Part shown: one piece after another, positions 3,403 to 49,792 of the stretch
Layout of the letters: each line of letters begins with the position of its first letter
Position numbering within the stretch: position 1 is the stretch's first letter
Source: Terriglobia bacterium
GTDB taxonomy: Bacteria; Acidobacteriota; Terriglobia; 20CM-2-55-15
Direction: 5' to 3'
DNA length: 64,000 nt
Assembly: GCA_965198225.1 (NCBI GenBank)
Contig: CBDAOY010000007.1
Coordinates: 990,045-1,054,044, forward strand
The notes under the pieces: model-generated
Database searches by the model: none
What the model saw: the letters and a program-made list of their open reading frames with translations, nothing else
What the model was told of the DNA's origin: nothing
Program-made: the position numbers and the translations under genes

Positions 3403-6400
3403 TCAGTCTTCGCCGCCTTTCCCGGACTTCTTGGACTTATCTGACTTTTCGGATTTGTCCGATTTGCCGGACTTGCCCGACTCCTCAGACTTGTTCGATT
3501 TTCCGGACTTGTCGGACTTACCCGATTTGTCGTCATCGTCGCCTTCGATGTCAGCCTGGATGCGGATCTCTCCCGAGTCGTTGCCGATCGTTAGGTTGAC
3601 CTCGACTGGATTCGAGATACTGTCCAGATTCACGGCCTCCGCCTCGACTCGAAAGTCGAAGGCGTCCGGACCCAGCTCGCGAATCCTCAGCTCCAGCTCG
3701 ATCCCGGCGACCTCGCCTTCAAACTCAAAGATGTCCGCACCACCCTTACGGCGGAACTCCAGCGAACCTGCCGGCAGCGTCAGTTCGAAGACGCCGATGT
3801 TCAGGACAACATCTTCCTGTGACGGGTCGATACCGTCGGAAGCGACGCCCAGCGTGAAAGCTTCCCGGAGGTCGAACTCGCCGTCCGCGCCCGTTTCAAT
3901 CTCAGCGACGGCGGCGAAATCGGCAAATATCTCTGGCTGCGTGTCGCGGATGGTGATCTCCACAGTGTCGTCGACGCAGTCGGAGCGAGAGTTGCAGGCC
4001 CGGAAGGCCGCCGAAACAATGGTATCCGCTCCCACCGACGGTGCGAGGAACGTTGCGCTGGCTCCCGACGTCTCGAAGACGCCGTCGCTGTCTGTGTCCC
4101 ATTCAAGAGTCAGGAACGACACATCGCCCCCTTCCGCGTGGGTAACAGTCCCGTTGAGCGCAATCGACTCTCCTTCGTCGACCTCGTACGGCCCCCCGGC
4201 ATCCGCCGTGATACCGGCGAGATCCTCGTCGCCGAACGTGTCCCCGGGAGCTACTGCTGCTATTTCGTTGCCGTCGGAGTCAACCACCCGAAGTGCAACG
4301 TTGCCCAGATTCTCGACCAGGAACTGTCCCAGCGGGGACTCGGTGACCTTGCCGATCCCGCCCGTCGGGATCGACACGAAGGTGTCAGCGCCGAAGCCGA
4401 CCTCGACTGGCCCACGGAGGACCTCTAAGGTCAGGGACCCGCACAGGAACTTCACGGCATCGTTCTGGTCCAGGTCCACTCCCTGGCCGCACGCCACGAT
4501 GTGCGCCTTTTCGGTCCCGCCCCTGGCGTTGGCGAACAACCCGTTTCCGAACGCGTCCCAAACCGTCACGTGCTGGTCCGCCCGGATCATTATGAAACCG
4601 GAACTAATCCCGTCGCTGAAATCGTCAGAAAAGGTCTGATCGGTGTCCACCTGGTCGATGATCCCGTCGCCGTCCCGGTCTTGCGGACCGATGGCCGTGA
4701 CGCGGCCCCCCACCCCAACGATGGCGCCGACCACCTTGTTCGAAACCGTCCCGTTTTCGTCCACCACCTCGATGACCTGAACGACGGACTCACTGGCCAC
4801 GTAGACCTTCGTCCCGTCCGGACTCACTGTGACGTCACTACCGAACGCCCCCGGCACTGCCGGGACGACGACGTCCTTGACGTTCGTGTCGATAACCGCG
4901 ACTCCAAACGGTCCCATCGCAACGTAGACGAGATGGCCATGGCCGTCTACGGGCTGCGGTGTCACGGCCAGATCGGACGGTACACCTCCAACGCTGATGT
5001 CCTTGACCTTCATGCCGTACTCACTGGTGTTCCTGTCAGCGCCGATGACGGAGACGGTCTTCGCGTTGGCAAAGGTATTCCCCACATAGGCCCACTGACC
5101 GTCGGGCGTCACGAGTACAGGACTGGGCTGGGTACCGACAACGATGTCGAGGGCCTCGGAGGTCTCGGTGTCGATCCGCGTGACCTTTTTCTGTTCGCGC
5201 CGGGTGGCGTAGACCTGAGTGCCGTCCGGGTGCACCGCCACACCGTCGAAGTTTTCCGCTGCTTTACCGGAATGTAAGACGGTCAGACCATGGGTCTCAG
5301 TGTCCATCACGTAGATGTCCGACCTGTTGCCACCCTGGTTGTCATTTTTGTCCTCGTGGACCACGACGAAGAGCTTCGTTCCGTCGGGGCTCACGACCAG
5401 TGCTTCGGGACCTGGTCCAACGACGTCCTCAACGGGGATAGGGACCTTGTGCACCTGTTTGGTGGCCGTGTCGAAGACCACAACGTTTTGGAGGTTGTTA
5501 AGGGAGTCCCGCTCGAGCCCATAGACTTCTGCCCCGTCTGGACGGACTGCGACGGCACCTGGCGCGCGATCAGTCAGGCCCGGCACAAGAGCTCCCGGCA
5601 CCGTTTCGGTGAGCAGGCAGTCATTGGCGGTGTCGATGATGCGGCCGTCGCCGGTATAGGCAAGCGGCCCGCCACCGCCGGTGCACGAAAGGGTGATCTT
5701 CGCGACGAACGCGTCGTTTCCGATTCCAGCGTTTGGCTGCAGCGTATTCCCCTCCTGCGGGAAGTTGGCGGATCCCGTTGTGCCGGCGACATAGACCTCA
5801 CCGAACGGGTTGACCGCGATACCGGAGCCCCTGTCGGCTCCGCTTCCTCCAAGGTAGGTGGAATACACGAGGTCTGTCCCGGAAAGGTTGAACTTGCTGA
5901 TGAAGGCATCGCAGAGCGTGCCATCGTGCAAGTGGGCTACGGGGTCCTCGGGTAGAGGGTCGACGAGTGGGAAACCGGTCATCGGGGCAGTCGTCGAGCA
6001 GCCCTGCCCGGTCACGTAAACGCCCGAGGGGTCTGCCGCGACAGCGTATCCGTAGTCGTCTCCCACGCCGCCCAGGAACGTGGAATACGTGAGATCCGCA
6101 CAGTTGTTGTACTGGACCTGTCCGATCGGGCAGCTCACGAAGGAGGAGTTGCCCGCGGACAGTGCCGCCACAAACACATCGTAAGTCCCACCGCCATGTG
6201 TCTCCTGGTAGGTGCCCGGAAAGCCGAAATTGCTGGAGGAGACAGGGAAGTCCATCGAAATGGTCTCTCCTGTGACCACGATTCCCCACGGACTGAAGGA
6301 TATGCCTCGCGCCAGGTCCCAGCTGGAGCCGCCCAGGTAGGTGGCATACTCCAGACGAGCTATCCCCTGGTTGTTTGTGCCCAGTTCGGCCAGAAAGGCG

Positions 6401-8301: not shown

Positions 8302-8422
8302 GCTTCGTCCGTAAGAGATCAAATCTGAGAGCCTGGGAAGTGCTGTGATAGCCGCCAGCAAATCAGTAGTCAGTTGCTTTTGGCGCATCCCTAACTGACT
8401 ACCGACTCCTGACTACTAACCA

Positions 8423-9748
8423 TCAATTCTTCCAACTGTCGGCCCACAAAGGCAGGCGCAGCCTGGCCGCACAGCCTTGCCCCTCGCCCCGGTTCTCCAG
8501 TGTCAGGGTACCCTGATGCGCTTCTGCGATCTGTCGGCTCAAAACCAGCCCGATTCCCGAGCCGCCCTTCTTGGTGGTGAAGAAGGGGACGAACAGGTTG
8601 GAGGTGTTCGGCAGGCCCGGGCCTTCGTCTTCAACCCAGATGTGCAGGTGGCCGCCGGAGCGACTCCACCCCGTTCGCACATCACCTCCAGTTTCGAGAG
8701 ACGCGTCGACGGCATTCCGGACCAGGTTGATGAGGAGCTGCTCGATCTGTCCGCCGTCGGCTTCGATCGTGATCGGCGGACCTGGTATCAGGTTGACCGG
8801 CAGGCGCGTCTCCATTCCGACGACTCGACGTACCAGGGTGTCCACATCGACCTCTTCGGGTTTCGGTTGAGGTAGGCGTGCGAGCTTGGAATAGGACTCG
8901 ACGAACTGGATCAGGGAAGCGGATCGGGACGAGATCACCGAGAGACCGTGTTGGACGTCTTCCTCCCAGTCCGCCGGCCGCTGATCGCGCCCGAGCAGGC
9001 TCATGAGACTGCTCGCGATCGAGCTGATCGGTGTCAGGGAGTTGTTCAACTCGTGACCCAGAACGCGCACGATCCTCTGCCAGGTTCGCCTTTCCTCCTC
9101 GCGGAGCGTCCGGCTGAGATCGGACAGAACCAGCAGCTGGTGGGGAAGTCCACCCTGGCGAAAATTTGTCCGGCGGATCTCCCACCGGCCCCCGCCGCCC
9201 GGGAAACCGAACTCGACCAGCCGCGGCGTTTTGCCCTCCAGGCAATGTGCCAGACCCAGTTCGGCGGCGTTCGCGCCGAGCAGGCGTTCCCATGGTCTGT
9301 TCAGGAGGCGTTCGCCGGCACGGTTGACCAGCCGTAGCTTCTGGCCCTCGTCGAAGGAGAGTATCGCGACGTCGATCTCCTCCATGATCTTCTGCAAGAG
9401 CGCGGTTGCCTCGAGCGCGTCCATTCGCTGCCACCGGAGCGTGTCGGCGAGCGCGTTGATTTCTCGCGTCACATCTCCCAGCGCGTCGTCAATTCGGGCA
9501 CTGCTGCCACGGATCGAGTAGTCCCCCTCACGGAGCCCCGCGAGCAGGTTGGAAAGGGTCTGAAGGGGGAAGACCACTTTCTGCCTGGCGCCGAACGCCG
9601 CCCCTAACCAGACCACGAGGATCAACACCGACAGCGTCCACTGGACTTTCGCCGTGTAATCACTGCTCCAGAGGATAATCAGGGAGATGAGCGAGCCGGG
9701 GACCCCGGCGGTGAAGGCGATCCAGAATATGCGCTCTTCGTGTCGCAT
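8423..9748 (-). CDS. Sensor histidine kinase (two TM segments, HAMP, PAS-like, HisKA, HATPase)
   Basis: H-box VLGHELNNSLTPISS. N/G boxes LINLVRNAVDA, VEDEGPGLP, GGSGIGLVLSRQIAEAHQG. N-terminal TM helices. Confidence 0.88.
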   Translation of the reverse strand: MRHEERIFWIAFTAGVPGSLISLIILWSSDYTAKVQWTLSVLILVVWLGAAFGARQKVVFPLQTLSNLLAGLREGDYSIRGSSARIDDALGDVTREINALADTLRWQRMDALEATALLQKIMEEIDVAILSFDEGQKLRLVNRAGERLLNRPWERLLGANAAELGLAHCLEGKTPRLVEFGFPGGGGRWEIRRTNFRQGGLPHQLLVLSDLSRTLREEERRTWQRIVRVLGHELNNSLTPISSIASSLMSLLGRDQRPADWEEDVQHGLSVISSRSASLIQFVESYSKLARLPQPKPEEVDVDTLVRRVVGMETRLPVNLIPGPPITIEADGGQIEQLLINLVRNAVDASLETGGDVRTGWSRSGGHLHIWVEDEGPGLPNTSNLFVPFFTTKKGGSGIGLVLSRQIAEAHQGTLTLENRGEGQGCAARLRLPLWADSWKN

Positions 9749-10246
9749 GGCTCGTTTTAGTTACAAGTAGGCCGTTGTCCGTTATTGTGGCAAATGACTC
9801 GTAGCCGTAAGCTGATCGCTGATGGCCAACTGACCGCCGGCCGGCTGCAGGCCATAGCTATCACCGGCCGCATCGCCGCCACGTGCCACAACAACGGCCT
9901 ACGGATAACGACCTACATCACTCCCACCAACTCATCCTGGCCGGGGACCCGGCGGTGAAGGCAGTCCAGAATATGTAATCGTCGTGTCGCATGGTCCGTT
10001 TCGTTACAAGTAGGCCGTTATCCGTAGGCCGTTATTGTGGTAAATGACTCGTGGCCGGAAGCTGATCGCTGATGGCCGACTTACCCGCCGGCCGGCGGCA
10101 GTCTGGCCACGAGCTATCATCGACCGCTTAGCTGGGACGTGCCACAACAACGGCCTACGGATAACGGCCTACGGCCGCGTCAGCGGCCCAACGGCCTACG
10201 GATAACGACTCACGGCCGCGCCAGCGGCCCAACGGCCTACGCTCAA
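9698..10246. repeat. Two tandem ~245-bp units, each containing a ~150-165-bp palindromic element with ~33-bp GTAGGCCGTTATCCGTAGGCCGTT-type arms, plus two extra 41-bp partial units
   Basis: Unit 1 starts at 9698 and unit 2 at 9943 (GGGGACCC..). The arms are at 9767..9792/9884..9916 and 10010..10042/10140..10172. Unit 1 includes the kinase start codon. Unit 2 carries a diverged decoy copy (MRHDDYIFWTAFTAGSP.. versus MRHEERIFWIAFTAGVPG..). Confidence 0.75.
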
Positions 10247-19139: not shown

Positions 19140-19314
19140 CCCGGACTCCCAGACAATTGGGACAATTCGGGGACGGAGACCGAATTCGTGGGGTCCGTAA
19201 CCGAACGGTTTAATGGTCCGGGTAATTCGGTCTCCGTCCCCGATCTCAACGCTTCGATCGTGGCCTTGGCGTATTCGGGTGAGAAATGCGCGGCAGCGTC
19301 TATACTGATCGCCG

Positions 19315-20713: not shown

Positions 20714-22300
20714 ATGATGAAGCGTTCATGGCAAGTACCGTCGCCGCGAGTGTATTTGCCGATCCTGCTTGTCCTCCTGCTGACGTTTCCCATCGCAGCC
20801 CAGATGCAGGAAACCGTGGACCTCGACGCCATTTACCGCATCAAGGACGAAGGGTTCAACCGATCCCAGGTAATGGACATCATGAGTTACCTGACCGACG
20901 TCCACGGGCCGCGGCTGACCGGGTCCCCCAACATCAGGGAAGCGGCAGAGTATGCCAGGAGCAAGCTCATCGAGTGGGAACTGGTCAACGTAGACCTGGA
21001 GAAGTGGGGTCCGTTCGGCCGCGGCTGGACCAACGATCGCTTCTCGGCCCACATGATGACCGGGGGACACGCTTACCCGATCATCGGATACACGAAGGCA
21101 TGGACTCCAGGAACGGACGGGGCCGTCAGTGGTGAAGTCGTGATCGCCGACATCGGGTCGGCCGCGGACTTCGACGAATACCGTGGCCAATTGCGCGGCA
21201 AGTTCGTTCTCATCTCTCCGATGCCGGCCGTTCCGGCGCTTTTTGACCCTCCTGCAGTTCGGCTGACCGACGAAATGCTGACCCAGCGTGCGATGCAGCG
21301 GCAGGCGCGGGGGCGCCGGGGCGGTCGCGGCCGAGGCGGTCGGGGTGGAGCCAGTTTCCGGCAGGAGCGGACACAGTACTTCGTCGATGAAGGCGTGGCG
21401 GCGCTTCTAGAGCCGGGTCGCGGGTCGGGAGGAACCGTGTTTGTCGGCGGCGGCGGTTCGCGCGATCCAGAAGCGGATCCGGTGCCCGTCCAGATCGTGC
21501 TGGCGGTGGAGCATTACGGCCGCATGTACCGGACGCTGCAGAGAAATGTCCCGGTCACGATGCAGATGGATGTCGCCAATACGTTCTACGACGACGACCT
21601 GGATGCCTTCAACGTGATCGGTGAGATACGTGGGGACGACAGGGCCGACGAGGTCGTCATGCTCGGTGCGCACTTCGATTCGTGGCACTCCGGCACCGGC
21701 GCGACCGACAACGCCGCCGGCTCGGCGGTCATGATGGAGGCCGTTCGGATCCTGAAGGAAACAGGACTGCGCATGCGTCGAACTGTCCGGATCGGACTCT
21801 GGACTGGGGAGGAACAGGGGTTGCTCGGTTCCCGGGCCTACGTCGGCGACCACTTCGGGGATCGAAGGACGATGGAGTTGAAGCCCGACCATGAGAAGTT
21901 CTCGGGGTATTTCAATGTCGACAACGGTACCGGCGCCATCCGCGGGGTGTACCTGCAGGGCAACGAGGCGATCGCTCCCGTTTTCGAGGCCTGGATGAAA
22001 CCCTTCGAGAACCTCGGCATGACGACGCTGGCGATTCGCAACACGGGAGGAACCGATCACCTTTCCTTCGACGCGATCGGCCTGCCGGGCTTTCAGTTTA
22101 TCCAGGATCCGGTGGAATACGGCAGCAGGACCCATCATTCCAGCATGGACGTATACGAGCGGATTCAACCCATGGATATGATGAAGAACGCTGTCATCGT
22201 TGCATCGTTCGTCTACCACACGGCCAATCGCGAGGAGCTCCTCCCGCGCAAGCCGCTGCCGCGGCCCCGGGACCGGGGAGGAAGGGGGCGGGGGCAGTAG
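20714..22300 (+). CDS. M28-family aminopeptidase with a PA domain (secreted)
   Basis: Signal peptide. NVIGEIRG..VVMLGAHFDSWHSGTGATDNAAGSAVMMEAVRIL..GLWTGEEQGLLGSRAYV. Confidence 0.85.
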   Translation: MMKRSWQVPSPRVYLPILLVLLLTFPIAAQMQETVDLDAIYRIKDEGFNRSQVMDIMSYLTDVHGPRLTGSPNIREAAEYARSKLIEWELVNVDLEKWGPFGRGWTNDRFSAHMMTGGHAYPIIGYTKAWTPGTDGAVSGEVVIADIGSAADFDEYRGQLRGKFVLISPMPAVPALFDPPAVRLTDEMLTQRAMQRQARGRRGGRGRGGRGGASFRQERTQYFVDEGVAALLEPGRGSGGTVFVGGGGSRDPEADPVPVQIVLAVEHYGRMYRTLQRNVPVTMQMDVANTFYDDDLDAFNVIGEIRGDDRADEVVMLGAHFDSWHSGTGATDNAAGSAVMMEAVRILKETGLRMRRTVRIGLWTGEEQGLLGSRAYVGDHFGDRRTMELKPDHEKFSGYFNVDNGTGAIRGVYLQGNEAIAPVFEAWMKPFENLGMTTLAIRNTGGTDHLSFDAIGLPGFQFIQDPVEYGSRTHHSSMDVYERIQPMDMMKNAVIVASFVYHTANREELLPRKPLPRPRDRGGRGRGQ

Positions 22301-22347
22301 GTCGTAGGCCGTAGGCAGTTGTGCGCGGGGGTCCGTTCAGCTTAACG

Positions 22348-22404
22348 GTCCGCGAGAGAGCCATCGTGAGGGGACAGGGCTAGCCCTGTCCCAGGGTGTT
22401 CGCT
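22348..22404. repeat. Inverted-orientation copy of the GGGGACAGGG..CCCTGTCCCC repeat family
   Basis: gtccgcgagagagccatcgtgaGGGGACAGGGCtaGCCCTGTCCCa aligns with the reverse complement of the units at 32133..32400. Confidence 0.65.
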
Positions 22405-23055: not shown

Positions 23056-23282
23056 CCAGGCCAGCTTCCAACCCAAGAAGGGGGCGGGCGTGACGCGCCC
23101 GCTTCTCCATCAAAGTTTTTGGGATCTTTCGGCAACATAGCGGTCTAATTGCAAACCGCGATATTGACTAATCCGCATTGCATGTTGTTCATTGGAGATT
23201 GCTTCACTTCAAATTTTCGGGAACAAATCTCCCGGGAGTTACCGGCCTTAGCGCTGATCCCGGAACTCCAAGTTTTTCGCTT

Positions 23283-25374: not shown

Positions 25375-25413
25375 CGCTCACGTAGTGGGTCAGCTTGAAT
25401 TCAAACTGAACCA

Positions 25414-25688
25414 CTAGTGACCTGTAACAGTGCTATCGGTACCAGCGTTCGGCGGAACGGCGTCGGATTCTAGGAGTGACGCCCGAGCCAATGCTGTTTC
25501 ATTGCGAGGGCGTTACGACACCGAAGACGGCGCCGTTCCGACGAACCCTTCGGGCCGATGGGGGTTGCGGGCGATCTCTTTGTCGGAAGCCGTCACCGAT
25601 GAAAGAGCATCGCTTTCCGTCTCCCTCCTCGACCTCGCCCGCAAGACCCATCGGCGATGGTGCCGATAGCACTGTTACAGGCCACTAG
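25414..25688 (+). mobile_element. 275-bp MITE-like element with ~30-bp terminal inverted repeats, copy 1
   Basis: CTAGTGACCTGTAACAGTGCTATCGGTACC ... GGTGCCGATAGCACTGTTACAGGCCACTAG (28 of 30 complementary). It has internal long hairpins. It matches 34705..34979 at 271 of 275 positions by eye, in the same orientation. Confidence 0.7.
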
Positions 25689-25760
25689 CACGCTGCCGGC
25701 TGCCTTGATCGAAAGCGTGCTGCGTGATAGTTTTCATCCCGTACGTTACGGAGAATTCCC

Positions 25761-27671
25761 ATGAAAAAGAACCGTCTTCCGGTGCGTTTGCTTACCGTTG
25801 CCGCAGCCACGCTGGCGGTGATCTCTTGCAGCGGCGTTTCAGCCGACAACGAGTTTTTCGGTCGCGTGACACCGCCTGAAGGACAGGTGATGCGCTACAT
25901 TTCGGGATCCGAGCCGGAATCGCTGGATCCGCCGGTATCTTCCGGGCAGCCCGAGGCTCGCCTCTACATGGCGCTGTTCGAGGGGTTGACCGACTACAAC
26001 CCGAAGACCGCCGGTCCGATCCCGGGTGTTGCGGAGAGCTGGGAAGCCAATGCGGACAACTCCGAGTTTGTCTTCCACCTCCGTGAAGATGCCCGTTGGA
26101 GCAATGGCGAACCGGTCAGAGCCGGGGATTTCGTCTACTCCTGGCGTCGTGCGCTATCGCCGGAGCTGGCGTCCAGAAATGCCTACCTCGCCTACGACAT
26201 CAAGTACGCGCAGGCCTACAACGAGGGCGGCGTGTTCGTCCTCGATCCTGAGACCGGGGAATTTCTCCGCGCGGTGGAGACGGCCCAGGGACCGTCCGAT
26301 TCGGAAGAGAACGATGAGTCCACCGGGGACACAGCCTTTCATGTCTTCATCCAGGGACCCACCCGTCTGACGCTCCCCGGGGACGAGGAGAGTCGTCAGG
26401 CGATGTTCGACGAAGATACTGAACTGGCGGGCCGGATGGCTGGGAAGGAATTCGTTCCCGTCCAGGCCGAGAGCATCGGCATCGAAGCCGTCGACGACCA
26501 TACCTTCCGCGCGACTCTGGCTCGACCGGCGCCGTACTTTGTCGGCCTCGTGGCGCACCAGACCTTCATGCCGGTCCTCCAGTGGGTCGTCGAACAGTAC
26601 GGTGAGGCCTGGACAAAGCCGGAAAACATCGTCACGAACGGCGCTTTCAAGCTGGAATCCCGGAAGCCGTACAACGAGATCGTCATGGTTCGGGACCCGA
26701 TGTACTGGGACGCGGACGCAGTGCGTCTCGACAAGCTCATCTTCTACCCGATGGAAGACGCAACGACGATGATGAATCTCTACAAGGCCGGAGAGGTCGA
26801 TGCTGTCTTCAATCATGTCGTTCCGGTGGCCTGGCTGGATCTGATCCGCCCCCTCGCCGACTACATGGATGCGCCCGAGAACGCGGTCGGGTACTACATG
26901 TTCAACGTGACGCGACCTCCTATGGACGACATCCGGGTGCGAAAGGCCTTCAACGCGTCCATCGACAAAGAGGCCCTGGCCCAGTACCGCCGGGTGACCA
27001 AGCCGCTGACTGCCTTCAGCCCCGAGGGAATCTACCCGGGTTACCCCCAGCCGAAGGGAGACCCGTTCGATCGGGAGCGGGCACGGAAGTGGCTCGCCGA
27101 GGCGGGCTACGTCGATGCGGCGGGCAACTACGATCCTTCCACCTTTCCGATTGAAGAGGTCGAACTGACATACAACACTTCGGAAAGCAACCGGCAGGTG
27201 GCGGAGTTCATCCAGGCGCAATGGAAGCAGAACCTGGGCTTGACGGTTCCGCTCAAGAACATGGAATGGAAGACATTCCTGGTTGTACGGGCGGCGCTGG
27301 ACTACAAGGGCATCGGGCGTGCCGGCTGGGTCGGCGACTACATGGATCCGTTTACTTTCCTCAATATCTTCTACACCGCCGGAGGGGACAACGGCACTGG
27401 CTGGTGGGACCCGGAATACGTGCGTTTGCTCGACGAGGCGAACACGACGCTGGATCCGGCGCGACGTTACGAACTGCTCGCTGAAGCCGAAGCATACATG
27501 CTCGCGGCACAGCCGATCATCCCGTTCGAGACCAACGCGACAAACTGGATGAAGAAGCCCTACGTGAAAGGTATGTATCCGAACCCGGGGACCCTCCATG
27601 CCTGGAAGTTCGTCTACATCGAACATGATCCGGCGAAATGGGACAGCGGCGTGCCGGATATGAGTCAGTAG
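25761..27671 (+). CDS. ABC transporter substrate-binding lipoprotein (family 5, peptide/nickel, OppA/DppA-like)
   Basis: Lipobox AVISC. Family-5 substrate-binding layout. First gene of a five-gene importer. Confidence 0.88.
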   Translation: MKKNRLPVRLLTVAAATLAVISCSGVSADNEFFGRVTPPEGQVMRYISGSEPESLDPPVSSGQPEARLYMALFEGLTDYNPKTAGPIPGVAESWEANADNSEFVFHLREDARWSNGEPVRAGDFVYSWRRALSPELASRNAYLAYDIKYAQAYNEGGVFVLDPETGEFLRAVETAQGPSDSEENDESTGDTAFHVFIQGPTRLTLPGDEESRQAMFDEDTELAGRMAGKEFVPVQAESIGIEAVDDHTFRATLARPAPYFVGLVAHQTFMPVLQWVVEQYGEAWTKPENIVTNGAFKLESRKPYNEIVMVRDPMYWDADAVRLDKLIFYPMEDATTMMNLYKAGEVDAVFNHVVPVAWLDLIRPLADYMDAPENAVGYYMFNVTRPPMDDIRVRKAFNASIDKEALAQYRRVTKPLTAFSPEGIYPGYPQPKGDPFDRERARKWLAEAGYVDAAGNYDPSTFPIEEVELTYNTSESNRQVAEFIQAQWKQNLGLTVPLKNMEWKTFLVVRAALDYKGIGRAGWVGDYMDPFTFLNIFYTAGGDNGTGWWDPEYVRLLDEANTTLDPARRYELLAEAEAYMLAAQPIIPFETNATNWMKKPYVKGMYPNPGTLHAWKFVYIEHDPAKWDSGVPDMSQ

Positions 27672-27791
27672 CGTGAGGCCCAATGTCCAAAGTCCGAGGT
27701 TCAAAGTCCGAGGTCCAAAGTCCAAGGTCGAATGTCTGGAGATCAGTTAATGACGTCGGACAGTGGACTTCGGACCGTGGACTGATTCCCG
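27672..27791. repeat. Intercistronic heptamer-phased repeat hairpin (GTCCAAA GTCCGAG GTTCAAA GTCCGAG GTCCAAA GTCCAAG .. inverted GTGGACTTCGGAC)
   Basis: Seven GT-phased 7-mers are followed by an inverted partial copy. It fills the spacer between the binding-protein gene and the first permease gene. Confidence 0.7.
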
Positions 27792-28712
27792 ATGTTGCAT
27801 TTCATAATCCGCCGACTGATGGTGACGCTGCCGATGGTCCTGGTTGTCGTGTCGCTGACCTGGGCTTTGATCCGGCTGGCTCCCGGCAACTTCTACACGG
27901 GCGAGAAGCCGATTCCCCCAGCGATCGAAGCAAACCTCCGCGCCAAGTACGGGCTCGACCAGCCTTGGTACGTCCAGTACGGGAAGATGATCAGCAACAC
28001 GCTGAGGGGGGACTTCGGAAACTCGTTGCGATACCAGGGACAGTCGGTGAACGAGATCCTGGCTGCCTCGCTGCCGGTGTCGGCGGGGATTGGCTTCGCG
28101 GCATACCTGCTGGCCCTTCTCATCGGCGTGCTCGTCGGCACGGTCTCGGCGGTCAAACAGAATTCCAGCATGGACTACACGTCGATGGGCTTTGCCATGG
28201 TCGGCATCTCTGTGCCCAACTTCGTTCTCGGACCGATTCTGGTGCTGGCGTTCGCACTGACGCTGTTCTGGCTGCCTCCGGCCCGGTGGGAAGGCTTTTT
28301 CAGTGTCCATACCATTCTGCCCGTGATCACGCTGTCCGCAGTCTACATGGCCTACATCGCCCGGCTTGCGAGATCGGGAATGCTCGAGGTACTCCGATCC
28401 AACTACATCCGAACCGCGCGGGCCAAGGGTTTGGATGAGAAAACCGTCGTTGTGCGGCATGGCCTGAGGGGTGGACTGCTGCCCGTCGTTTCGTTCTCGG
28501 GTCCGGCTCTGGCCCTGCTCATATCGGGCACCGTAGTCGTCGAGCGCATTTTCGCGCTGCCGGGATTGGGAAACTATTTCATCAACGCCAACCTCAACCG
28601 CGATGAACCGTTGATCATCGGAATCGTCGCGTTTATGTCGATCTCGATCCTGATCTTCAATCTGCTGGTCGACATCGCGTATGGATTCCTGGACCCCAGG
28701 GTGAGGTATTGA
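27792..28712 (+). CDS. ABC transporter permease (OppB/DppB-like)
   Basis: Starts MLHFIIRRL. The EAA-type loop YIRTARAKGL is present. Confidence 0.9.
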   Translation: MLHFIIRRLMVTLPMVLVVVSLTWALIRLAPGNFYTGEKPIPPAIEANLRAKYGLDQPWYVQYGKMISNTLRGDFGNSLRYQGQSVNEILAASLPVSAGIGFAAYLLALLIGVLVGTVSAVKQNSSMDYTSMGFAMVGISVPNFVLGPILVLAFALTLFWLPPARWEGFFSVHTILPVITLSAVYMAYIARLARSGMLEVLRSNYIRTARAKGLDEKTVVVRHGLRGGLLPVVSFSGPALALLISGTVVVERIFALPGLGNYFINANLNRDEPLIIGIVAFMSISILIFNLLVDIAYGFLDPRVRY

Positions 28713-28898
28713 AGAAGTTATGCGTAGGCCGTTATCCGTTGTCGGAAGAGGAGCTACCAACTCACAACGACGTACCAACGGCCTACGGCCTACTGAACCG
28801 AGGAAGTTATGAGTAGTCAGCTGTCAGTAGTCAGTTTTGGGAAAGGGATGGCGTACCGCCCAACGGCCTACGGACAACGGCTTACGACTTATTGACGA
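28713..28898. repeat. Intercistronic repeat cluster (GTAGGCC/GTTATCC and AGTAGTC/AGCTGTC heptamer words with inverted partners)
   Basis: CGTAGGCCGTTATCCGTTGTCGG..CCAACGGCCTACGGCCTAC, then GAGTAGTCAGCTGTCAGTAGTCAGTTTTGG..CCAACGGCCTACGGACAACGGCTTAC. Confidence 0.7.
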
Positions 28899-29837
28899 AT
28901 GTCCCAGGTTACCGAAACCGAAGTTGTGGCCGGAACGTCCTTGTGGCGCGACGCATGGCGCCGCCTGCTTCGCAACAGGTTGGCCGTCATCGGCATGACT
29001 TTCGTCGCCTTGATCGTTCTCGCGTCGATCGTCGGCCCACCGATCATCGAGGCGACAACCGGTTTCACGTACGACTACATACCGGCTGATTCCTCGCAGA
29101 TTCGATCGTTCCCGCCATTCACGGCGCCTGACGGTTCCTTTTCCCTGACTCACCCGATGGGAACCGACGAGGCGGGGCGGGACATCCTCGCGAGAGTTCT
29201 GTTGGGCGGGCGAATCTCTCTCATGGTCGGAAGCATTTCGACGATCGTGTCCCTGCTCATCGGTGTGACATACGGGGCGACGGCCGGTTACGTGGGCGGC
29301 CGGGTCGATGACGGGATGATGCGCATCGTCGACGTGCTCTACGCGATTCCATACATGATGGTTGTGATCGTCCTGCTGGCTTTCTTCGGAGGTCAGTCGC
29401 CGCTGGGTCAGTTGTTTCTGTTGTTCTTCGCTCTCGGCGCCGTGTCGTGGCTGACGATGGCCCGAATCGTGCGGGGACAGGTGATCTCGTTGAAGAACCA
29501 GGAATTCGTCCTCGCCGCGCGCGCCGGGGGCGTGTCGACTCCAAAGATCATCTTCAGGCATCTCGTTCCGAACACGCTCGGACCGGTCGTCGTCTACGCG
29601 ACGTTAACGATCCCGTCCGTCATGCTGCTCGAGGCGTTCCTGTCTTTCCTGGGTCTCGGTGTCCAGGCTCCGCTCGCCTCGTGGGGGAGTCTCGCCGCGG
29701 ACGGCATCCGAAACATCGCCGTCTTCCCGTGGCAGCTGATCTTTCCCGGAGTGACGATGGCCGCGACGCTGTTCTCGTTGAACTTCATGGGTGACGGGCT
29801 CCGGGACGCCTTGGATCCGCAGATGCGAAAGATGTAA
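28899..29837 (+). CDS. ABC transporter permease (OppC/DppC-like)
   Basis: Typical OppC N-terminus (WRDAWRRLLRNRLAV) and permease core. Confidence 0.9.
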   Translation: MSQVTETEVVAGTSLWRDAWRRLLRNRLAVIGMTFVALIVLASIVGPPIIEATTGFTYDYIPADSSQIRSFPPFTAPDGSFSLTHPMGTDEAGRDILARVLLGGRISLMVGSISTIVSLLIGVTYGATAGYVGGRVDDGMMRIVDVLYAIPYMMVVIVLLAFFGGQSPLGQLFLLFFALGAVSWLTMARIVRGQVISLKNQEFVLAARAGGVSTPKIIFRHLVPNTLGPVVVYATLTIPSVMLLEAFLSFLGLGVQAPLASWGSLAADGIRNIAVFPWQLIFPGVTMAATLFSLNFMGDGLRDALDPQMRKM

Positions 29838-29999
29838 GCACGGATTACACGGATGGACTTACACATACAGGAGGAAGACAAGCCACGGATTGCACGGATT
29901 ACACGGACAGGAAGAAGCCCGTGGTCTGCATTCCGAAAAGACTACTCCTAATCCGTTAAATCCGTGTAATCCGTGGCTTAGCAGTCTGAACATCAACGT
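29838..29999. repeat. Intercistronic repeat hairpin (CACGGATT-type direct repeats with an inverted copy AATCCGTGTAATCCGTGGC)
   Basis: gCCACGGATTGCACGGATTACACGG .. CCGTTAAATCCGTGTAATCCGTGGc. Confidence 0.7.
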
Positions 30000-31034
30000 A
30001 TGAACGAGGCTACGCTACTTTCGGTCCGATCACTAAGGACCTACTTCGAAACCGAGGACGGTACCGTCAGGGCGGTCGACGGTATCGATTTCGACCTCGC
30101 CTGCGGACGGACGCTCGGTATCGTCGGAGAATCCGGGTCCGGGAAGTCGGTCACCAACCTTTCGATCATGCGCCTGATCCCGTCGCCACCAGGTCGCATC
30201 GCTTCGGGCGAGATCGACTTCGACGGCCGGGATCTCCTGTCCCTGTCTGAGGAGGACATGCGCGGCGTTCGCGGCGATCGCATCGCGATGATCTTCCAGG
30301 ACCCTATGACTTCGTTGAACCCGTTCATGCGGATCTCGGACCAGCTCATGGAAGTGACCCGCCTCCACCTCGGGCACGGCAGGGCCGAGGCGCTCGAACA
30401 CGCGGTCGGAATGTTGGAGCTGGTCGGTATTCCGGATGCGCGCGAACGCGCGGGGAACTATCCACACGAGTTTTCCGGAGGAATGCGCCAACGCGTGATG
30501 ATAGCGATGGCATTATCGTGCGAGCCGAAACTGCTCATCGCCGACGAGCCAACGACGGCTCTGGACGTCACGATTCAGGCGCAGATTCTCGAACTGATCC
30601 GAAAACTGAAACGGGAGACAGGCACGAGCGTCATCCTGATCACCCACGACCTCGGCGTTGTAGCCGGTATGACCGACGACATCGTGGTCATGTACGCCGG
30701 CAAGGTCTTTGAACAGGCGCCGACACGCAGGCTGTTTGCCAATCCGGCCAATCCGTACACCGAAGGGTTGTTGCGCTCGGTCCCTGGACCGTCGTCGAAC
30801 GGCGGGGAGCTGTACCAGATTCCTGGTCTGCCTCCCGACCTCACGCGGCTCGGACCCGGCTGTCCGTTCGCGCCCCGATGCGACAGGGCGCAAGAGATCT
30901 GCAACAGCGAATTCCCGCCCTTCGTGGAACTCGGGCCCGACCATCACTCGCTGTGTCACTTCGCCGCCGAGGTTTACGCCGCGAACGGCGGGAGACAATA
31001 TGACGCCGGCTCGCCGTCCGAAACCGGTGATTGA
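30000..31034 (+). CDS. ABC transporter ATP-binding protein (OppD/DppD-like)
   Basis: [35 protein letters not shown], and an oligopeptide-type C-terminal extension. Confidence 0.9.
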
Positions 31035-31039
31035 GAGAC

Positions 31040-32122
31040 ATGGCTGAAAGCGCAACAGGACCGGACGTGGCCCACAACGGAACGCTTCTCTCGATCCGGG
31101 ATCTCAAGGTGCATTTCGATCTGGGCGGCGGAACCCTGTGGGATAGGGCCACAGGGGGGAGTCCGGTCCGGCGCGTCGTCAAGGCTGTCGACGGTGTGAC
31201 CATCGACATCCGCGCCGGCGAGACCCTGGGCCTGGTCGGAGAATCCGGATGCGGCAAGTCCACCCTCGGGCGTGCGCTGCTACGTTTGGAAGAGCCGACT
31301 GCCGGCGCGGTCGTTTTTCGCGGAGTGGACCTCCGCGGCCTGGCGCCGGCCGCGATGCGCGAGCAGCGGCGTCATCTGCAGATGATTTTCCAGGATCCGT
31401 ACGCGTCCCTGAACCCGCGCATGACGGTCGGGCAGATCGTCTCGGAGCCGATCGAGACCTTCGGACTGGCATCCGGCGCGGAAAAGGCCGGCCGGGTGAA
31501 TGAGCTGATGGAAACGGTCGGGCTCAGCCAGAGGTTCGTCAAGCGGTACCCGCACGAGTTCTCCGGCGGACAGCAACAGCGCATCGGCATCGCGCGCGCA
31601 CTGGCGGCCAATCCTGATTTCATTGTCGCCGACGAGCCCATATCGGCCCTGGACGTGTCGATCCAGGCGCAGATCATCAACTTGATCGAGCGGTTGCGCC
31701 GGGAACGAAACCTGACATACCTGTTCATCTCACACGATCTCCGCGCTATCCGGCACACTGCCGATCGCGTCGCGGTGATGTATCTGGGAAAGCTCGTCGA
31801 GCTGGGTGACGCCGAGACTCTCTACAACGACCCGCTCATGCCGTACACGAAGGCGCTGATCTCGGCGGTTCCCATTCCCGACCCCGAACGGGAGTTGGCG
31901 CGCGAGCGTGTCGTGCTGGAAGGTGACGTTCCGTCCCCCATCAACCCGCCCTCTGGCTGTCGCTTCCACACCCGCTGTCCTTATGCCATCCACGCTTGCA
32001 GGGAGAACGTGCCTGAGCTCGTCGAAATCAAGCCGGACCACATGGCCGCGTGCATCCGGATCAGTTCCGAGCAGCCCGACATCGACGGGGTTGCGCCTGA
32101 TTCGGCCCCGGGACTTGGTTGA
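31040..32122 (+). CDS. ABC transporter ATP-binding protein (OppF/DppF-like)
   Basis: [37 protein letters not shown] prefer the ATG at 31040 over the TTG at 31031 used by the track. Confidence 0.9.
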
Positions 32123-32132
32123 GAAATTCCTG

Positions 32133-32400
32133 TCTGAAAAGTTTTGGGTAAGTAGACACCCGAGGACAGGGCTATACCCCTGTCCCCCTCACATTGGCTC
32201 TTTCACGGACTTTTCGCGTAGCGACCGGAAAACCCTCTGTGCCTCCGCGCCTTTGCGGTGAGATCGCCGCTCTGAAGAGTTCTGCGTAAGCAGACACCCG
32301 GGGACAGGGCTATACCCCTGTCCCCCTCACATTGGCTCTCTCACGGACATCCCGCGTAACGACAGGAAAACCCTCCGTGCCTCCGCGCCTCCGTGGTTAG
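32133..32400. repeat. Two tandem 138-bp repeat units with a central palindrome GGACAGGG-ctatac-CCCTGTCC
   Basis: The units start at 32133 and 32271 (TCTGAARAGTT..GTAAGYAGACACCC..). The second unit abuts the stop codon of the convergent permease gene. Confidence 0.8.
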
Positions 32401-34683: not shown

Positions 34684-34704
34684 CCCAGACCGCTGCGGAG
34701 CATC

Positions 34705-34979
34705 CTAGTGACCTGTAACAGTGCTATCGGTACCAGCGTTCGGCGGAACGGCGTCGGATTCTAGGAGTGACGCTCGAGCCAATGCTGTTTCATTGCGAGG
34801 GCGTTGCGACACCGAAGACGGCGCCGTTCCGCCGAACCCTTCGGGCCGATGGGGGTTGCGGGCGATCTCTTTGTCGGAAGCCGTCACCGATGAAAGAGCA
34901 TCGCTTTCCGTCTCCCTCCTCGACCTCGCCCGCAAGACCCATCGGCGATGGTGCCGATAGCACTGCTACAGGCCACTAG
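34705..34979 (+). mobile_element. 275-bp MITE-like element, copy 2
   Basis: Same element as 25414..25688, with four substitutions. It starts 22 bp after the stop codon of the deacetylase gene. Confidence 0.7.
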
Positions 34980-37236: not shown

Positions 37237-37486
37237 AGAATGTGCGGTCATAGACCGCAGCTACACCTATCGCAAATTGCGATATTTGAAAGAATCCACA
37301 TTGCAGGTTGCTCATTGGAGATTGTTTCATTTTAGATTTCCGACCAATAAGAAATCGAGCAATTTGCAATCTCCAAATTTCCAATGCGGAATCGTCCAAT
37401 GACCAATCTGCAATAGCTGTCAGACGAGGTCCCAGCCACCTCCCTCGATCGAGTAGAATGTGCGGTCATAGAGCGCACCTACACTT
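37237..37486. repeat. Composite repeat: ~30-bp direct repeats (GAATGTGCGGTCATAGASCGCA..CTACAC) flanking a palindromic CATTGGAGATTG / CAATCTCCAAAT core
   Basis: The direct repeats are at 37237..37266 and 37456..37486. The left half of the core (AATCCACATTGCAGGTTGCTCATTGGAGATTGTTTCA) recurs at about 23170..23215. Confidence 0.6.
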
Positions 37487-45077: not shown

Positions 45078-45256
45078 GGGGTGTCTCCTGATTCAATGCG
45101 AAGGGCAAGTTCTCCGAACGAATCATTTGATCGACTTTTCTTCAGCCGATATTGTAAGCGAAGTCACCGAGATGGGAAGGGTAGCGTGGATGTCAAAGAC
45201 GAGAGAGGTGAGGGGCGCCGGCAGACGATGACGCGACCTGCCGGCGTCTGCGCCTT

Positions 45257-45915
45257 ATCCCGGGCGTCGACGCATCTCTTCCCGGGTGATGAATCCATCA
45301 TCGTCCGCGTCGAGGCGGTCGAAGGCCTCAGTCGGTCGGGTCCACTCGTCACGAGAAACCTTGCCGTCGCCGTCTTCATCCATCTGGAGCATCGCGGCTC
45401 CCCGGCCACGTCCGCCTCTGCCCGGGCGGGAGTTCTGCATCTCTTCGAGAGTGATGAAGCCGTCGCCATCGGCGTCCATGGTCTCGAACATCTGCGCGGG
45501 ACCCGGAAACTCCTGCTGCGACACGCGTCCATCGCCATCGCTGTCGAGCCCCTGGAAACGGGCTTGAGGGTCTGCGCCTCTTCCGCCTCTATCCCGGGCG
45601 TCGCCATCTCTTCCCGAATCCATCATCGTCCGCGTCGAGGCGGTCGAAGGCCTCAGTCGGTCGGGTCCACTCGTCACGAGAAACCTTGCCGTCGCCGTCT
45701 TCATCCATCTGGAGCATCGCGGCTCCCCGGCCACGTCCGCCTCTGCCCGGGCGGGAGTTCTGCATCTCTTCGAGAGTGATGAAGCCGTCGCCATCGGCGT
45801 CCATGGTCTCGAACATCTGCGCGGGACCCGGAAACTCCTGCTGCGACACGCGTCCATCGCCATCGCTGTCGAGCCCCTGGAAACGGGCTTGAGGGTCTGC
45901 GCCTCTTCCGCCTCT
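45257..45915. repeat. Tandem direct duplication (334 bp + 325 bp) inside the EF-hand coding region
   Basis: 45257..45590 and 45591..45915 are identical by eye except for a roughly 9-10-nt indel cluster at the start of each unit (..GACGCATCTCTTCCCGGGTGATGAATCC versus ..GCCATCTCTTCCCGAATCC). Confidence 0.85.
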
Positions 45916-46746
45916 GCCGCGGCCGCCCCCGAATTGCCGCTGGATTTCGTCACGAGCGAGGAGACCATCATCGTTTCGATCGAGCCGGTCGAACGTCTCG
46001 CCGTCGCCCGTCCACTCTTCCCGTGAGATTGTACCGTCCTCGTTCGTGTCCATGACGCCCATACCGCCCGCAGTCCCGGGCCTCTGCCCCGGCCGAGGGC
46101 GCATACCACGCATGCCGCGGCCGCGACGCTGTCCCTGTTCCTGTCCGTAGGCGGTGATCTCCCCTCTGAGAGCGACCTCGAGCGCTGCCCTGGCTTCGGG
46201 GACATCGAACCCGGCCGGCCCGGGGCGTCCCTTGAAGGCGATGGTGCCGTCGGAGCCCACGACATAGATCCGGTCGGGAAACGCGGCGTACGCATTCGCC
46301 GTCCGGTCGTCGATCTTGTCCAGAATGGTCGGCATCGAGATGTCCAAGGCGGTCGTACAGATGTTGGCTGCTTCCTGGCGCTGCTCGTCGGTTTTGGCTT
46401 GTTCGATCAGGATGCCGTCGATAACATTCGCCGCTCCGAGGTTGCCGTCGGTGGGATGCGCTTCTCGAATGTAGACGAAGAAGAAATTGGCGCGGTCCTT
46501 GTAAGCCTGGTACCAGTTTTCGATGTCCACGACATCGCGGCGGAACGGGCCTCAGGTATAGCTGGCGAAGATCAGCGCGGTCGGTCTGCCCGTCATCTCA
46601 GAAAGCGTAATCTTTTGCTTTCCGTCTTTTGTACTGAGCGTGAAATCAGGCGCCGTATCTCCAGGCGTGGGGCCGCCGCCTCGCCGCTGGGCCGTGGCAG
46701 GGCTCACCAGGACGAGGACCAATAACGCAGACGCGAATGTTCTCAT
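45589..46746 (-). CDS. Candidate selenoprotein: secreted deiodinase-like thioredoxin-fold domain (in-frame TGA = Sec) fused to EF-hand repeats
   Basis: Track ORFs 46552..46788 and 45589..46530 are in one frame. Read through TGA 46554..46552 they give ..TALIFASYT-U-GPFRRDVVDIENWYQAYKDRANFFFVYIREAHPTDG... The ATG at 46746 is preceded by GGAGGAG and is followed by signal peptide MRTFASALLVLVLVSPATAQ. There are five intact EF-hand loops plus one truncated loop. Confidence 0.6.
46521..46537 (-). promoter_or_regulatory. Candidate bacterial SECIS hairpin
   Basis: The RNA CGAUGUC-GUG-GACAUCG starts 14 nt after the UGA. It is a 7-bp perfect stem with G/U in the apical loop. Confidence 0.4.
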
Positions 46747-48544: not shown

Positions 48545-48613
48545 CCAAGCCTGTTGGGGGATATATTGGGGGAGTGCTGGAGTGCCTCTGCCCCATCGGT
48601 CGAGGGCTCTGCA

Positions 48614-49792
48614 ATGGCCATTCACAAACTCTCCCAACGCAAGGTAGACACCGCCGGTCCCGGCAAATACGAAGACGGCGGCGGGCTCCGCTTGGTGGTG
48701 TCCAATTCAGGCGCCAGGAGATGGGTCCTGCGTTACACCGTCCACGGCAAACGCCGGGAAATGGGTCTGGGCCGTTATCCCGATGTCGGGTTGGCCGATG
48801 CCCGCACGCAAGCGCTACGGCACCGGAGGCAGTTGGCGACGGGCGTAGATCCCATCGCAGCCCGCCGGGCGGCCCCGGAGACGCTACCCACCTTCACCAT
48901 CTGCGCCGCCCGGTATATCCGGGCCCATCGACGGAGTTGGCACAATGCCAAGCACGCGCGGCAATGGGTCCGGAGCCTGAAGACCTATGCCCGGCCCGTC
49001 ATCGGGGCCAAACGGGTCGACGCCATTGAGACTGAAGACATTGTAAAGATACTCTCTTCGATCTGGAACACCAAGACCGAAACGGCCAAGCGCGTGCAGG
49101 GGCGCATCGAAAATGTCCTGGACTTCGCCGCCGCGCACCAATACTGCGGTCCCCTGAACCCGGCCCGCTGGCGGGGCCATCTGGACAAGTTGCTCCCGAA
49201 GCCCTCCCGGGTGAAGCAAGTCACCCACCACCCGGCCATGCCGTATCCCGAGGTGGCGGACTTCCTGCAGGAGCTGTCCGGACACCGGAGTGTATCGGCG
49301 CAGGCGCTGCGGTTTTTGATCCTGACCGCCACGCGCACCAGTGAAGTCTTAGAGGCGCAGTGGCCGGAAATCGATCGGACCGCCGGTATATGGATCCTTC
49401 CCGCCTCCCGGATGAAAGCCCGACGGGAACATCGAGTTCCCTTATCGGATGCGACCCTGGCGGTTCTGGAAGACCTACCCCGCATGGCAGGCCACCCGTA
49501 TGTCTTCGCCGGATCTCGCCACGGACGCCCTCTGTCGAACATGGCCCTACTGAAATTGATGCGAGACATGGGATATTGCGTTGAGGGTTCCCGGGCTCAC
49601 TACGTGCCGCATGGATTTCGCTCCAGTTTTCGGGATTGGTCCGGCGAGGTGTCGAGCTTCCCGCGAGAAGTTGCGGAAATGGCCTTGGCCCACGTGGTGG
49701 AGAACAAGGTGGAAGCGGCCTACCGGCGGGGGGATCTGTTCGCCAAACGGCGCAGCATGATGCAGGCCTGGGCCGACTACCTCAAGAAGTAG
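48614..49792 (+). CDS. Tyrosine recombinase / P4-type integrase (DUF4102 arm-binding N-terminus)
   Basis: MAIHKLSQRKVDTAGPGKYEDGGGLRLVVSNSGARRWVLRY..GRYPDVGLADAR. Catalytic region TATRTSEV, HGFRSSFRDW, AYRRGD. Confidence 0.9.
   Translation: MAIHKLSQRKVDTAGPGKYEDGGGLRLVVSNSGARRWVLRYTVHGKRREMGLGRYPDVGLADARTQALRHRRQLATGVDPIAARRAAPETLPTFTICAARYIRAHRRSWHNAKHARQWVRSLKTYARPVIGAKRVDAIETEDIVKILSSIWNTKTETAKRVQGRIENVLDFAAAHQYCGPLNPARWRGHLDKLLPKPSRVKQVTHHPAMPYPEVADFLQELSGHRSVSAQALRFLILTATRTSEVLEAQWPEIDRTAGIWILPASRMKARREHRVPLSDATLAVLEDLPRMAGHPYVFAGSRHGRPLSNMALLKLMRDMGYCVEGSRAHYVPHGFRSSFRDWSGEVSSFPREVAEMALAHVVENKVEAAYRRGDLFAKRRSMMQAWADYLKK

Follow-up and report, generated by a model that had tools for sequence, protein, structure and literature searches.

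The 64-kb window of a soil Acidobacteriota genome analyzed here (the whole stretch of DNA, in whose coordinates all positions are given) carries on its plus strand a five-gene Opp/Dpp-type ATP-binding cassette (ABC) peptide transporter operon, and the three spacers between its binding-protein, permease, and first ATPase genes are the subject of this analysis (Table 1). An earlier note on this DNA had claimed spacers of 120, 186, and 162 bp, each made of its own repeat words, at junctions of genes that are normally tightly coupled. The gene coordinates confirm the three spacers, each is indeed built from its own words, and those words were all found within 1–2 nt of where they had been placed (GTCCAAA at 27685, GTAGGCC at 28724, and CACGGATT at 29839). 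Tight coupling is also what was found elsewhere, as the same junctions measure 0–43 nt in nine related or more distant Acidobacteriota loci; L009 is an exception among them in that its best binding-protein match lies 5 kb upstream. Three long-read metagenome contigs that come from different samples encode the identical permease protein. Spacers 1 and 3 do not differ among three independent assemblies, again from different samples, so that the spacers are no assembly artefact.

Table 1. Genes of the operon, its spacers and their parts, and further repeat copies in the window (TRF, Tandem Repeats Finder; MFE, minimum free energy; MITE, miniature inverted-repeat transposable element).
Feature	Position	Strand	Length	Remarks
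Binding protein (SBP_bac_5, family-5)	25761-27671	+		
Permease	27792-28712	+		
Permease (OppC_N)	28899-29837	+		
ATPase	30000-31034	+		
ATPase	31031-32122	+		start overlaps stop of preceding ATPase
Spacer 1	27672-27791		120 nt	binding protein to permease (A-B)
Spacer 1, 5' arm	27685-27736	+		~7 heptamers of GTCCAAA/GTCCGAG type, 14-nt dimer period; TRF, family D1, inverted pair I2, MFE stem
Spacer 1, 3' arm	27752-27783	+		complementary array GACGTCGGACAGTGGACTTCGGACCGTGGAC; ends 8-9 nt before permease ATG 27792
Spacer 2	28713-28898		186 nt	permease to permease (B-C)
Spacer 2, 5' arm of GTAGGCC/GTTATCC hairpin	28723-28745	+		begins 10 nt past stop; inverted pairs I3, I4, I9, I14; fold
Spacer 2, first GTAGGCC-type 3' arm (CCAACGGCCTACGGCCTAC)	28775-28793	+		family D2, pairs I9, I14
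Spacer 2, 81-nt segment	28777-28857	+	81 nt	direct repeat CGTACC at 28771-28776 and 28852-28857
Spacer 2, AGTAGTC/AGCTGTC heptamer array	28812-28834	+		5' arm without partner; TRF
Spacer 2, second GTAGGCC-type 3' arm (CCAACGGCCTACGGACAACGGCTTACGAC)	28860-28888	+		pairs with 28723-28745; ends ~10 nt before ATG 28899
Spacer 3	29838-29999		162 nt	permease to ATPase (C-D)
Spacer 3, lone extra CACGGATTA word	29838-29853	+		immediately past stop; family D3
Spacer 3, hairpin	29876-29987	+		pair I1, TRF period 9, fold z=-6.3; ATG 30000
AGTAGTC...ACTGACT heptamer hairpin	8361-8417			5 nt downstream of histidine-kinase-like gene (8423-9748, minus strand)
Two MITE-like elements with GTAGGCCGTT/AACGGCCTAC ends and common interior	9767-9915, 10010-10176		~150 nt each	GTAGGCC word forms the terminal inverted repeats
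Partial array	22293-22316			

The element is a noncoding structure made of tandem copies of a short unit followed by an array of that unit in reverse complement. A 7-nt unit is usual, often alternating as a 14-nt dimer, and spacer 3 has a unit of 9 nt; the layout allows DNA or RNA of either strand to fold into a stem of 20–35 bp. In spacer 3, arms of 9-nt CACGGATTR units (29880-29907 and 29952-29979) face each other over 28 nt with 89% complementarity and enclose a 44-nt loop. An AGGAGG motif (29869-29874) lies 2 nt 5' of this stem, and GAGG-like motifs precede others. The idea of a Shine–Dalgarno sequence bridged across the stem was set aside as speculation, the spacing in spacer 2 being too long, and a possible resemblance of the CACGGATTA unit to the CsrA binding consensus was likewise put aside. 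No Rfam family matched at E≤1 in 27600-30050, and the sole match in the whole window is a tRNA. A terminator scan for a stem followed by a U-tract found no plus-strand site in the three spacers, so that an intrinsic (Rho-independent) terminator was rejected for each of them; promoter- and terminator-like sites across the region are no commoner than in shuffled sequence.

Periodicity was assessed against 1000 dinucleotide-preserving shuffles, a background that all three spacers exceed. Spacer 1 is enriched at lag 7 (z=6.4) and lag 14 (z=8.1) and spacer 2 at lag 7 (z=7.3), and in both the best lag was matched by 0 of the 1000 shuffles. The enrichment in spacer 3 is at lag 9 (z=4.3, matched by 3 of the 1000) and not at lag 7. 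TRF likewise reports a period of 7/14 in spacers 1 and 2 and of 9 in spacer 3. The 7-nt periodicity originally claimed for the series is therefore a property of spacers 1 and 2 (7/14 nt) that does not extend to spacer 3. A hairpin in each spacer had also been proposed; on folding, long stems were obtained for spacer 1 (−47.5 kcal/mol, z=−3.7) and spacer 3 (−60.6 kcal/mol, z=−6.3), whereas spacer 2 is a composite and is considered further below.

Comparison of the operon among relatives revealed that hairpin spacers are absent from several of them and that the words have changed in the close relative L004. In L005, L006, L008, L009, and more distant Vicinamibacterales-type loci, the three junctions measure 0–43 nt, as exemplified by a TGA-CG-ATG junction between the permease genes. 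Among the relatives compared, expanded junctions occur only in L004 (97% permease identity) and L007 (90%); the five protein identities do not place L007 unambiguously with respect to L005 and L006, and are compatible both with a single gain of the hairpins and with their loss in L005 and L006. In L004, the A-B junction retains a GTCC-type hairpin that, compared to spacer 1, lacks exactly 21 nt (3×7) of the 5' arm and has a loop differing by 9 nt. Its B-C junction holds a complete AGTAGTC hairpin, the array that is left partnerless in spacer 2 of the window, and no GTAGGCC element; compared to L004, GAAGTTATG is duplicated, with one copy on each side of the GTAGGCC module of spacer 2 (28714-28722 and 28803-28811). 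The C-D junction of L004 is occupied by a GTCCGAG-type hairpin, the loop of which contains a degenerate form of CACGGATT, the word of spacer 3 in the window. The words in L007 are GTCCGAA, AGTGGTC, and GTCCGAG.

Variation extends to contigs of the same species. Conspecific contig L003 lacks 81 nt of spacer 2 (28777-28857 of the window), and in conspecific contigs L001 and L002 an IS4-like element, with genes carrying DUF4372 and DDE_Tnp_1, sits inside the AGTAGTCAGCTGTCAGTAG (AGTAGTC) array after position 28830, in opposite orientations (L001:10921-12524 and L002:8725-10258). In L002, a second insertion sequence (IS) additionally interrupts the binding-protein gene. A preference of IS elements for the heptamer array might account for these insertions, as might decay of the operon in some members of the population. 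The hairpins are not conserved parts of the operon, nor are they a conserved regulatory device specific to it.

The words are not equally distributed outside the operon. GTAGGCC is present at no fewer than four sites in the 64 kb, including the MITE-like pair of Table 1, which is followed by extra AACGGCCTACGG units up to 10246; the whole of 9767-10246 lies between codirectional minus-strand genes. The GTCC and CACGGATT words are confined to the operon within the DNA examined. Features of MITEs are found in part in the ~150-nt GTAGGCC elements, and in spacer 2 the GAAGTTATG sequence is a possible 9-bp duplication; spacers 1 and 3, with their unique loops, do not show this combination of features. 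Elsewhere, AGTAGTC/AGTAGAC hairpins fill gene junctions in several Pyrinomonadaceae genomes, and period-8 CGCAAAG hairpins are present in L004, L007, and L071. In metagenomes, arrays of 3.5 or more GTCCRRR units were found on at least 120 contigs. Among the matches listed that are not cut by a contig end, a complementary array lies downstream in 30 of 126 and upstream in none, the remaining 96 being plain tandem arrays; long plain arrays without an inverted partner occur in L087 (~18 units of GTCCGGG), L094, L096, and L105-L107. The wide variety of these contigs indicates that the word is not confined to the lineage of the window. A period-9/18 array at 3434-3531 was excluded from the phenomenon on the grounds that it is coding: it specifies a KSGKSDKSE-type low-complexity C-terminal tail of a 1533-aa DUF7948/beta-propeller protein (3403-8004, minus strand), next to a tRNA gene (3162-3248, minus strand).

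To place the spacers in a wider context, arrays with periods of 7, 8, 9, 14, 16, or 18 and an inverted partner at most 220 nt away were counted in the window and 80 Acidobacteriota loci, together 1.35 Mb. This census yielded 134 tandem-plus-inverted arrays, compared to 12 in Markov-shuffled copies. The oppC-oppD spacer is at least 45 nt long in 37 of the 72 loci having both genes; within the range of 5–11, the strongest period of these long spacers is 7 in 30 of the 37. A clear hairpin is present at this junction in 22 or more loci, mostly Pyrinomonadaceae, in words that are related but drifting (AGTGACA, AGTGATG, AGTGAAG, GGTGATA, GTAAATG, and others). Neighboring hairpins of one genome are mostly made of unrelated words, six of them within 6 kb in L022; a locus nevertheless reuses its words more often than expected by chance (permutation p about 0.006), with a low mean within-locus similarity. 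At 44 codirectional junctions, the hairpin starts a median of 4 nt past the stop codon (interquartile range [IQR] 0–5) and ends a median of 8 nt before the next start (IQR 6–12). Another 14 hairpins are located at convergent and 4 at divergent gene pairs.

The two arms differ consistently. Among 69 period-7/14 hairpins, a phased AGT was found in the 5' arm of 37 and in the 3' arm of none, and ACT shows the reverse distribution, with 35 in the 3' arm and none in the 5' arm. G exceeds C in the 5' arm in 58 of the 62 informative cases (p=3e-13). Each of the three frames contains a stop in 36 of 61 5' arms, in contrast to 5 of 61 3' arms and 5 of 61 shuffled 5' arms. This polarity is unchanged by reverse complementation and is therefore independent of locus orientation. 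The three elements of the window follow it loosely, with G at least equal to C and few stops. By eye, among the flanks listed, the natural stop of the upstream gene usually lies 4–5 nt outside the array and is often of another type, which does not support the idea that arrays are seeded from that stop codon.

The structure, turnover, whole-unit changes, and placement observed here are interpreted, with a probability of roughly 0.6, as those of Acidobacteriota hairpins of the short tandemly repeated repetitive (STRR) type that grew by slippage, some of them MITE-like, and that are tolerated or used as mRNA stem-loops bracketing the gap between genes. Under such a model, hairpins would have arisen at formerly tight gene junctions and would grow by slippage, their arms being kept complementary by selection or by intrastrand templating. 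They change by gain or loss of whole units, as the 21-nt difference between relatives shows, and by nested insertion and inter-repeat recombination, as shown by the 81-nt polymorphism and the differing words at one junction. Some words, at least the GTAGGCC family, may occasionally spread as small dispersed MITE-like copies. Transcribed within the operon mRNA, a stem would loop out nearly the entire spacer and bring the upstream stop and the downstream start to within ~12 nt of each other in space, a geometry in which junction insertions of this kind would be tolerated. A terminating ribosome could open the stem from its base and thereby uncover the start region of the next gene, so that translational coupling would be preserved between genes that were once overlapping or adjacent. 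In addition, a stem of at least 20 bp might hold up 3' exonucleases or be a target of RNase III cleavage.

Several observations weigh against this interpretation. Simple slippage does not predict a strict arm polarity. The whole of spacer 2 folds no better than its shuffles (z=−1.3), a result attributed to its composite nature, and the geometry in the window is looser than the phylum median, with stems that begin 13, 10, and 38 nt past the stops. The folding energies of sense and antisense RNA are equal in 35 in-operon hairpins (Wilcoxon p=0.19), and nothing therefore favors selection at the RNA level over selection on DNA palindromes. Variant units are mirrored between the arms in 66% of cases in register, compared to 42–59% when slid by 7 nt, a weak signal that is biased by the choice of register. 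Finally, transcription through the spacers, their processing, and any effect on mRNA stability or translational coupling are what we infer from sequence.

A possible, if rather doubtful, origin is that the spacers are miniature mobile elements of a REPIN or MITE kind (REPIN, a hairpin of paired repetitive extragenic palindromic [REP] sequences), inserted by a transposase encoded elsewhere, with the heptamers as their terminal repeats. The distribution of GTAGGCC would fit such elements, with several sites in 64 kb, among them the two ~150-nt copies with a common interior and inverted ends, and with the duplicated GAAGTTATG flanking its module in spacer 2 relative to L004. Presence/absence polymorphism and nesting point in the same direction, as do the occurrence of one word at two sites in some genomes (L034, L050, and L072) and a common loop start, GCTCCGCG, of AGTAGTC hairpins at different Pyrinomonadaceae loci. 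Moreover, GTAGGCC and AGTAGTC contain GTAG, the tag of REPs linked to REP-associated tyrosine transposases (RAYTs) (PMC3733652). Mobility is, however, at odds with the mostly unrelated words of neighboring hairpins (the six within 6 kb of L022), whose within-locus similarity is low though above that between loci, and with the unrelated loops of same-word copies in the lineage of the window. Lengths change in multiples of 7, and 96 of the 126 GTCCRRR metagenome arrays among the matches listed have no inverted partner. No Y1/IS200-type or other matching transposase was found in the window: a scan of 40 of its open reading frames (ORFs) detected no RAYT/Y1 REP-type transposase, and the five operon genes have other family assignments.

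It seems unlikely that the spacers are selected regulatory elements of the transporter operon which, by analogy with the REP of malE-malF, would make the mRNA stability or translation of the binding-protein gene differ from that of the membrane and ATPase genes. Stems of at least 20 bp are a classical RNase III substrate and a barrier to 3' exonucleases, which would fit such a role, and one hairpin does lie immediately after the binding-protein gene. The drift of words under a retained oppC-oppD hairpin in those 22 or more, mostly Pyrinomonadaceae, loci also suggests that structure persists at that junction. Yet sister species have the same operon with junctions of 0–43 nt, hairpins also stand at the permease–permease and permease–ATPase junctions, whose gene products are required in equal amounts, and others occupy junctions of unrelated genes as well as the 14 convergent and 4 divergent pairs. 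The hairpins differ in word in the 97% relative and are polymorphic within the species, folding shows no sense/antisense asymmetry, and the spacers lack U-tract terminators. Tuning of the binding protein against the membrane components, through the differential mRNA stability suggested in the earlier note, is thus not favored, as the hairpins are absent in sisters, occur at every junction type, and vary within the species.

More speculatively, the heptamer hairpins could form one rule-bound class across the Acidobacteriota, probably also in Cyanobacteria and others, with a fixed polarity and an exact stop-to-start placement, although this is regarded as improbable. The class may be described by the formula 5'-(AGTNNNN)n, loop, (NNNNACT)n-3', identical on both strands, with a G-rich first arm that bears stops in each of the three frames. 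Such a class would imply either a dedicated generating mechanism or a selected translational insulator or coupler, which would halt stray ribosomes, hide the next start until the upstream ribosome arrives, and keep C-rich RNA from Rho. The orthologous oppC-oppD junction, where words drift and the hairpin stays, would then provide a natural test series.

Mini-cistrons of the kind proposed for the mycobacterial interspersed repetitive units (MIRUs), in which an internal ATG behind a Shine–Dalgarno-like GAGGAAG and a stop just before the next gene would relay translation, are very improbable despite the two copies of GAAGTTATG in spacer 2, a 27-codon frame that opens at the second ATG and ends in a TGA 4 nt before the oppC ATG, and a similar L004 frame beginning MSSQL, and the reading was rejected: the frames are not conserved between conspecific contigs (in L003 the first-ATG frame enters oppC out of frame), spacers 1 and 3 lack them, heptamers shift the frame with every repeat, and most 5' arms have stops in all three frames.

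Taken as STRR-type hairpins, the spacers offer several experimental handles, including close relatives that carry or lack hairpins at a given junction, polymorphism within a species, and an oppC-oppD hairpin that is kept with a changing word in dozens of genomes. The arm polarity and the stop-to-start placement make a role in coupling or mRNA decay, as well as the origin of the elements, directly testable. More generally, such hairpins inflate “intergenic” gaps in operons and can mislead operon and promoter prediction, and they may be hot spots for IS insertion and rearrangement.

Other repeats lie in and around the operon. Two ~270-nt MITE-like repeats with inverted ends CACTAGTGACCTGTAACAGTGCTATCGG / CCGATAGCACTGTTACAGGCCACTAG (25410-25700 and 34700-34950) are located directly upstream of the binding-protein gene and upstream of an adenylate/guanylate cyclase gene, respectively. 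Just past the last operon gene, a 138-nt unit is present as a tandem duplicate (32133-32390, 90% identity) and is also represented at 22372-22391; each copy contains a GGACAGGGCTATACCCCTGTCC hairpin and a CCTCCGTG-type tail. One copy of this type in L004 (L004:14440-14575) follows a period-8 CGCAAAG hairpin that is absent from the window, and a similar GGGGACAGG...CCTGTCCCC hairpin occupies the short A-B junction of L005 and L006. A common ~40-nt motif, CATTGCA(T/G)GTTG(T/C)TCATTGGAGATTG(C/T)TTCA, occurs in two intergenic places, upstream of a prolyl oligopeptidase gene and in the 600-nt gap after the cyclase gene (23176-23215 and 37297-37335), and may represent either a regulatory site or a small RNA.

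Farther away, a long nonperiodic hairpin, GGGGACGGAGACCGAATT...AATTCGGTCTCCGTCCCC, preceded by GGGACAATTGGGACAATTCGG direct repeats, lies between BsuPI-domain and M20 peptidase genes (19165-19245). At 45291-45915, a 325-nt unit is repeated 1.9 times with 100% identity across EF-hand and thioredoxin-like ORFs (45164-46530, minus strand), which points to a very recent duplication or else to an assembly artefact. The segment 48554-61736 has the look of an integrated conjugative element: a phage-type integrase (48554-49792) is followed by the conjugation genes TrbI (58874-59803) and TrbL (60735-61736) and by a 1758-aa ORF carrying 291-nt tandem repeats (54605-55496). Heptamer hairpins were not detected in this segment.

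Among known systems, MIRUs are tandem repeats in the intercistronic gaps of operons, as are the elements described here; unlike these, they have units of 40–100 bp and proposed small ORFs overlapping the neighboring stops and starts, and they form no heptamer hairpins. The GGGAATC repeats of Xanthomonas and the GGGGAYT repeats of Nostoc are intergenic heptamer arrays, some of them in inverted pairs, and like the present elements they vary in length and sequence at the same junctions in close relatives (PMC4692102). They differ in their G-quadruplex-forming G-runs, in using one word per genome, and in that hairpins are exceptional. The TAACTGA repeats of marine Beggiatoaceae, some Cyanobacteria, and Bacteroidetes (MacGregor 2015) share several properties with the hairpins: heptamer arrays ending a few nt before starts, stops in all three frames, the frequent lack of a Shine–Dalgarno sequence, and an AGT phase in the reverse complement, AGTTATC. 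However, they comprise essentially one word in direct repeats only, with one inverted case in 170 sets, and their stop-rich orientation faces the start codon, whereas here the stop-rich arm follows the upstream stop.

The likeness to REPs and bacterial interspersed mosaic elements (BIMEs) drawn in the earlier note holds for position and variability and is weaker otherwise, in view of the tandem-array arms, of words mostly peculiar to one site, and of the scan of 40 window ORFs, in which no REP-associated transposase was found. REPs are known targets of some insertion sequences, and an IS lies inside an array in the conspecific contigs. Like the REP, BIME, and REPIN elements of Proteobacteria, the hairpins are extragenic palindromes mostly just past stops, between codirectional or convergent genes; they occur inside operons and vary among strains, and two of their words contain GTAG (PMC3733652). 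In those words GTAG is inside the repeated unit and base-paired, not a terminal GTAG (or CGTC) tag outside the stem as in REPs, and neither the GTCC nor the CACGGATT word contains it. REPs proper are single palindromes of 20–40 nt with stems of 5–13 bp, belong to few conserved families per genome, and are RAYT-linked; the elements here have tandem-array arms, stems of up to 20–35 bp, and their own word at nearly every site.

The parallel with cyanobacterial STRRs, in contrast, is borne out by the 7-nt tandem units and the intercistronic hairpins. Knowledge of cyanobacterial heptamer repeats goes back to 1990, and STRR1 (CCCCAGT) and STRR3 (CAACAGT) of Mazel et al. 1990 reportedly share the AGT phase. 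The present words differ from those of the canonical STRR1-3, and only the ACTGACT word fits a Nostoc repeat. The dispersed intergenic repeats of Nostoc PCC 7120 include ccactgactactgac, ttgtcagttgtcag, and similar words (PMC2408588, Table 3), and ACTGACTACTGAC, the reverse complement of AGTAGTC, is shared with them (PMC2408588). Some STRRs are reported to form hairpins between cistrons such as hupS-hupL and have been proposed to act in “transcript stability or translation coupling” (PMC2670836), and according to Mrazek 2007, as related in PMC4679880, heptamers are the commonest long simple repeats in most prokaryotic genomes examined, with polymerase slippage as the proposed cause.

Like STRRs, the Acidobacteriota elements have a tandem 7-nt unit, an intergenic or intercistronic position, many words per genome, and the capacity to form hairpins, and they are dispersed at many intergenic sites (8361-8417, 9767-10246, and 22293-22316 in the window; 134 arrays in 1.35 Mb). 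They are distinguished by their phylum, by regularly having both arms and filling the whole stop-to-start gap, by the common 14-nt alternating dimers, and by the 9-nt unit of one of the three elements. The spacer elements are thus the same kind of element as STRRs and not members of the named cyanobacterial families. A full-text literature search naming Acidobacteria found no description of such hairpins there, and the locus places a known kind of heptamer repeat in one of the dominant soil phyla. New here is an STRR-kind element in another phylum, the Acidobacteriota, with a polarity and a placement rule.

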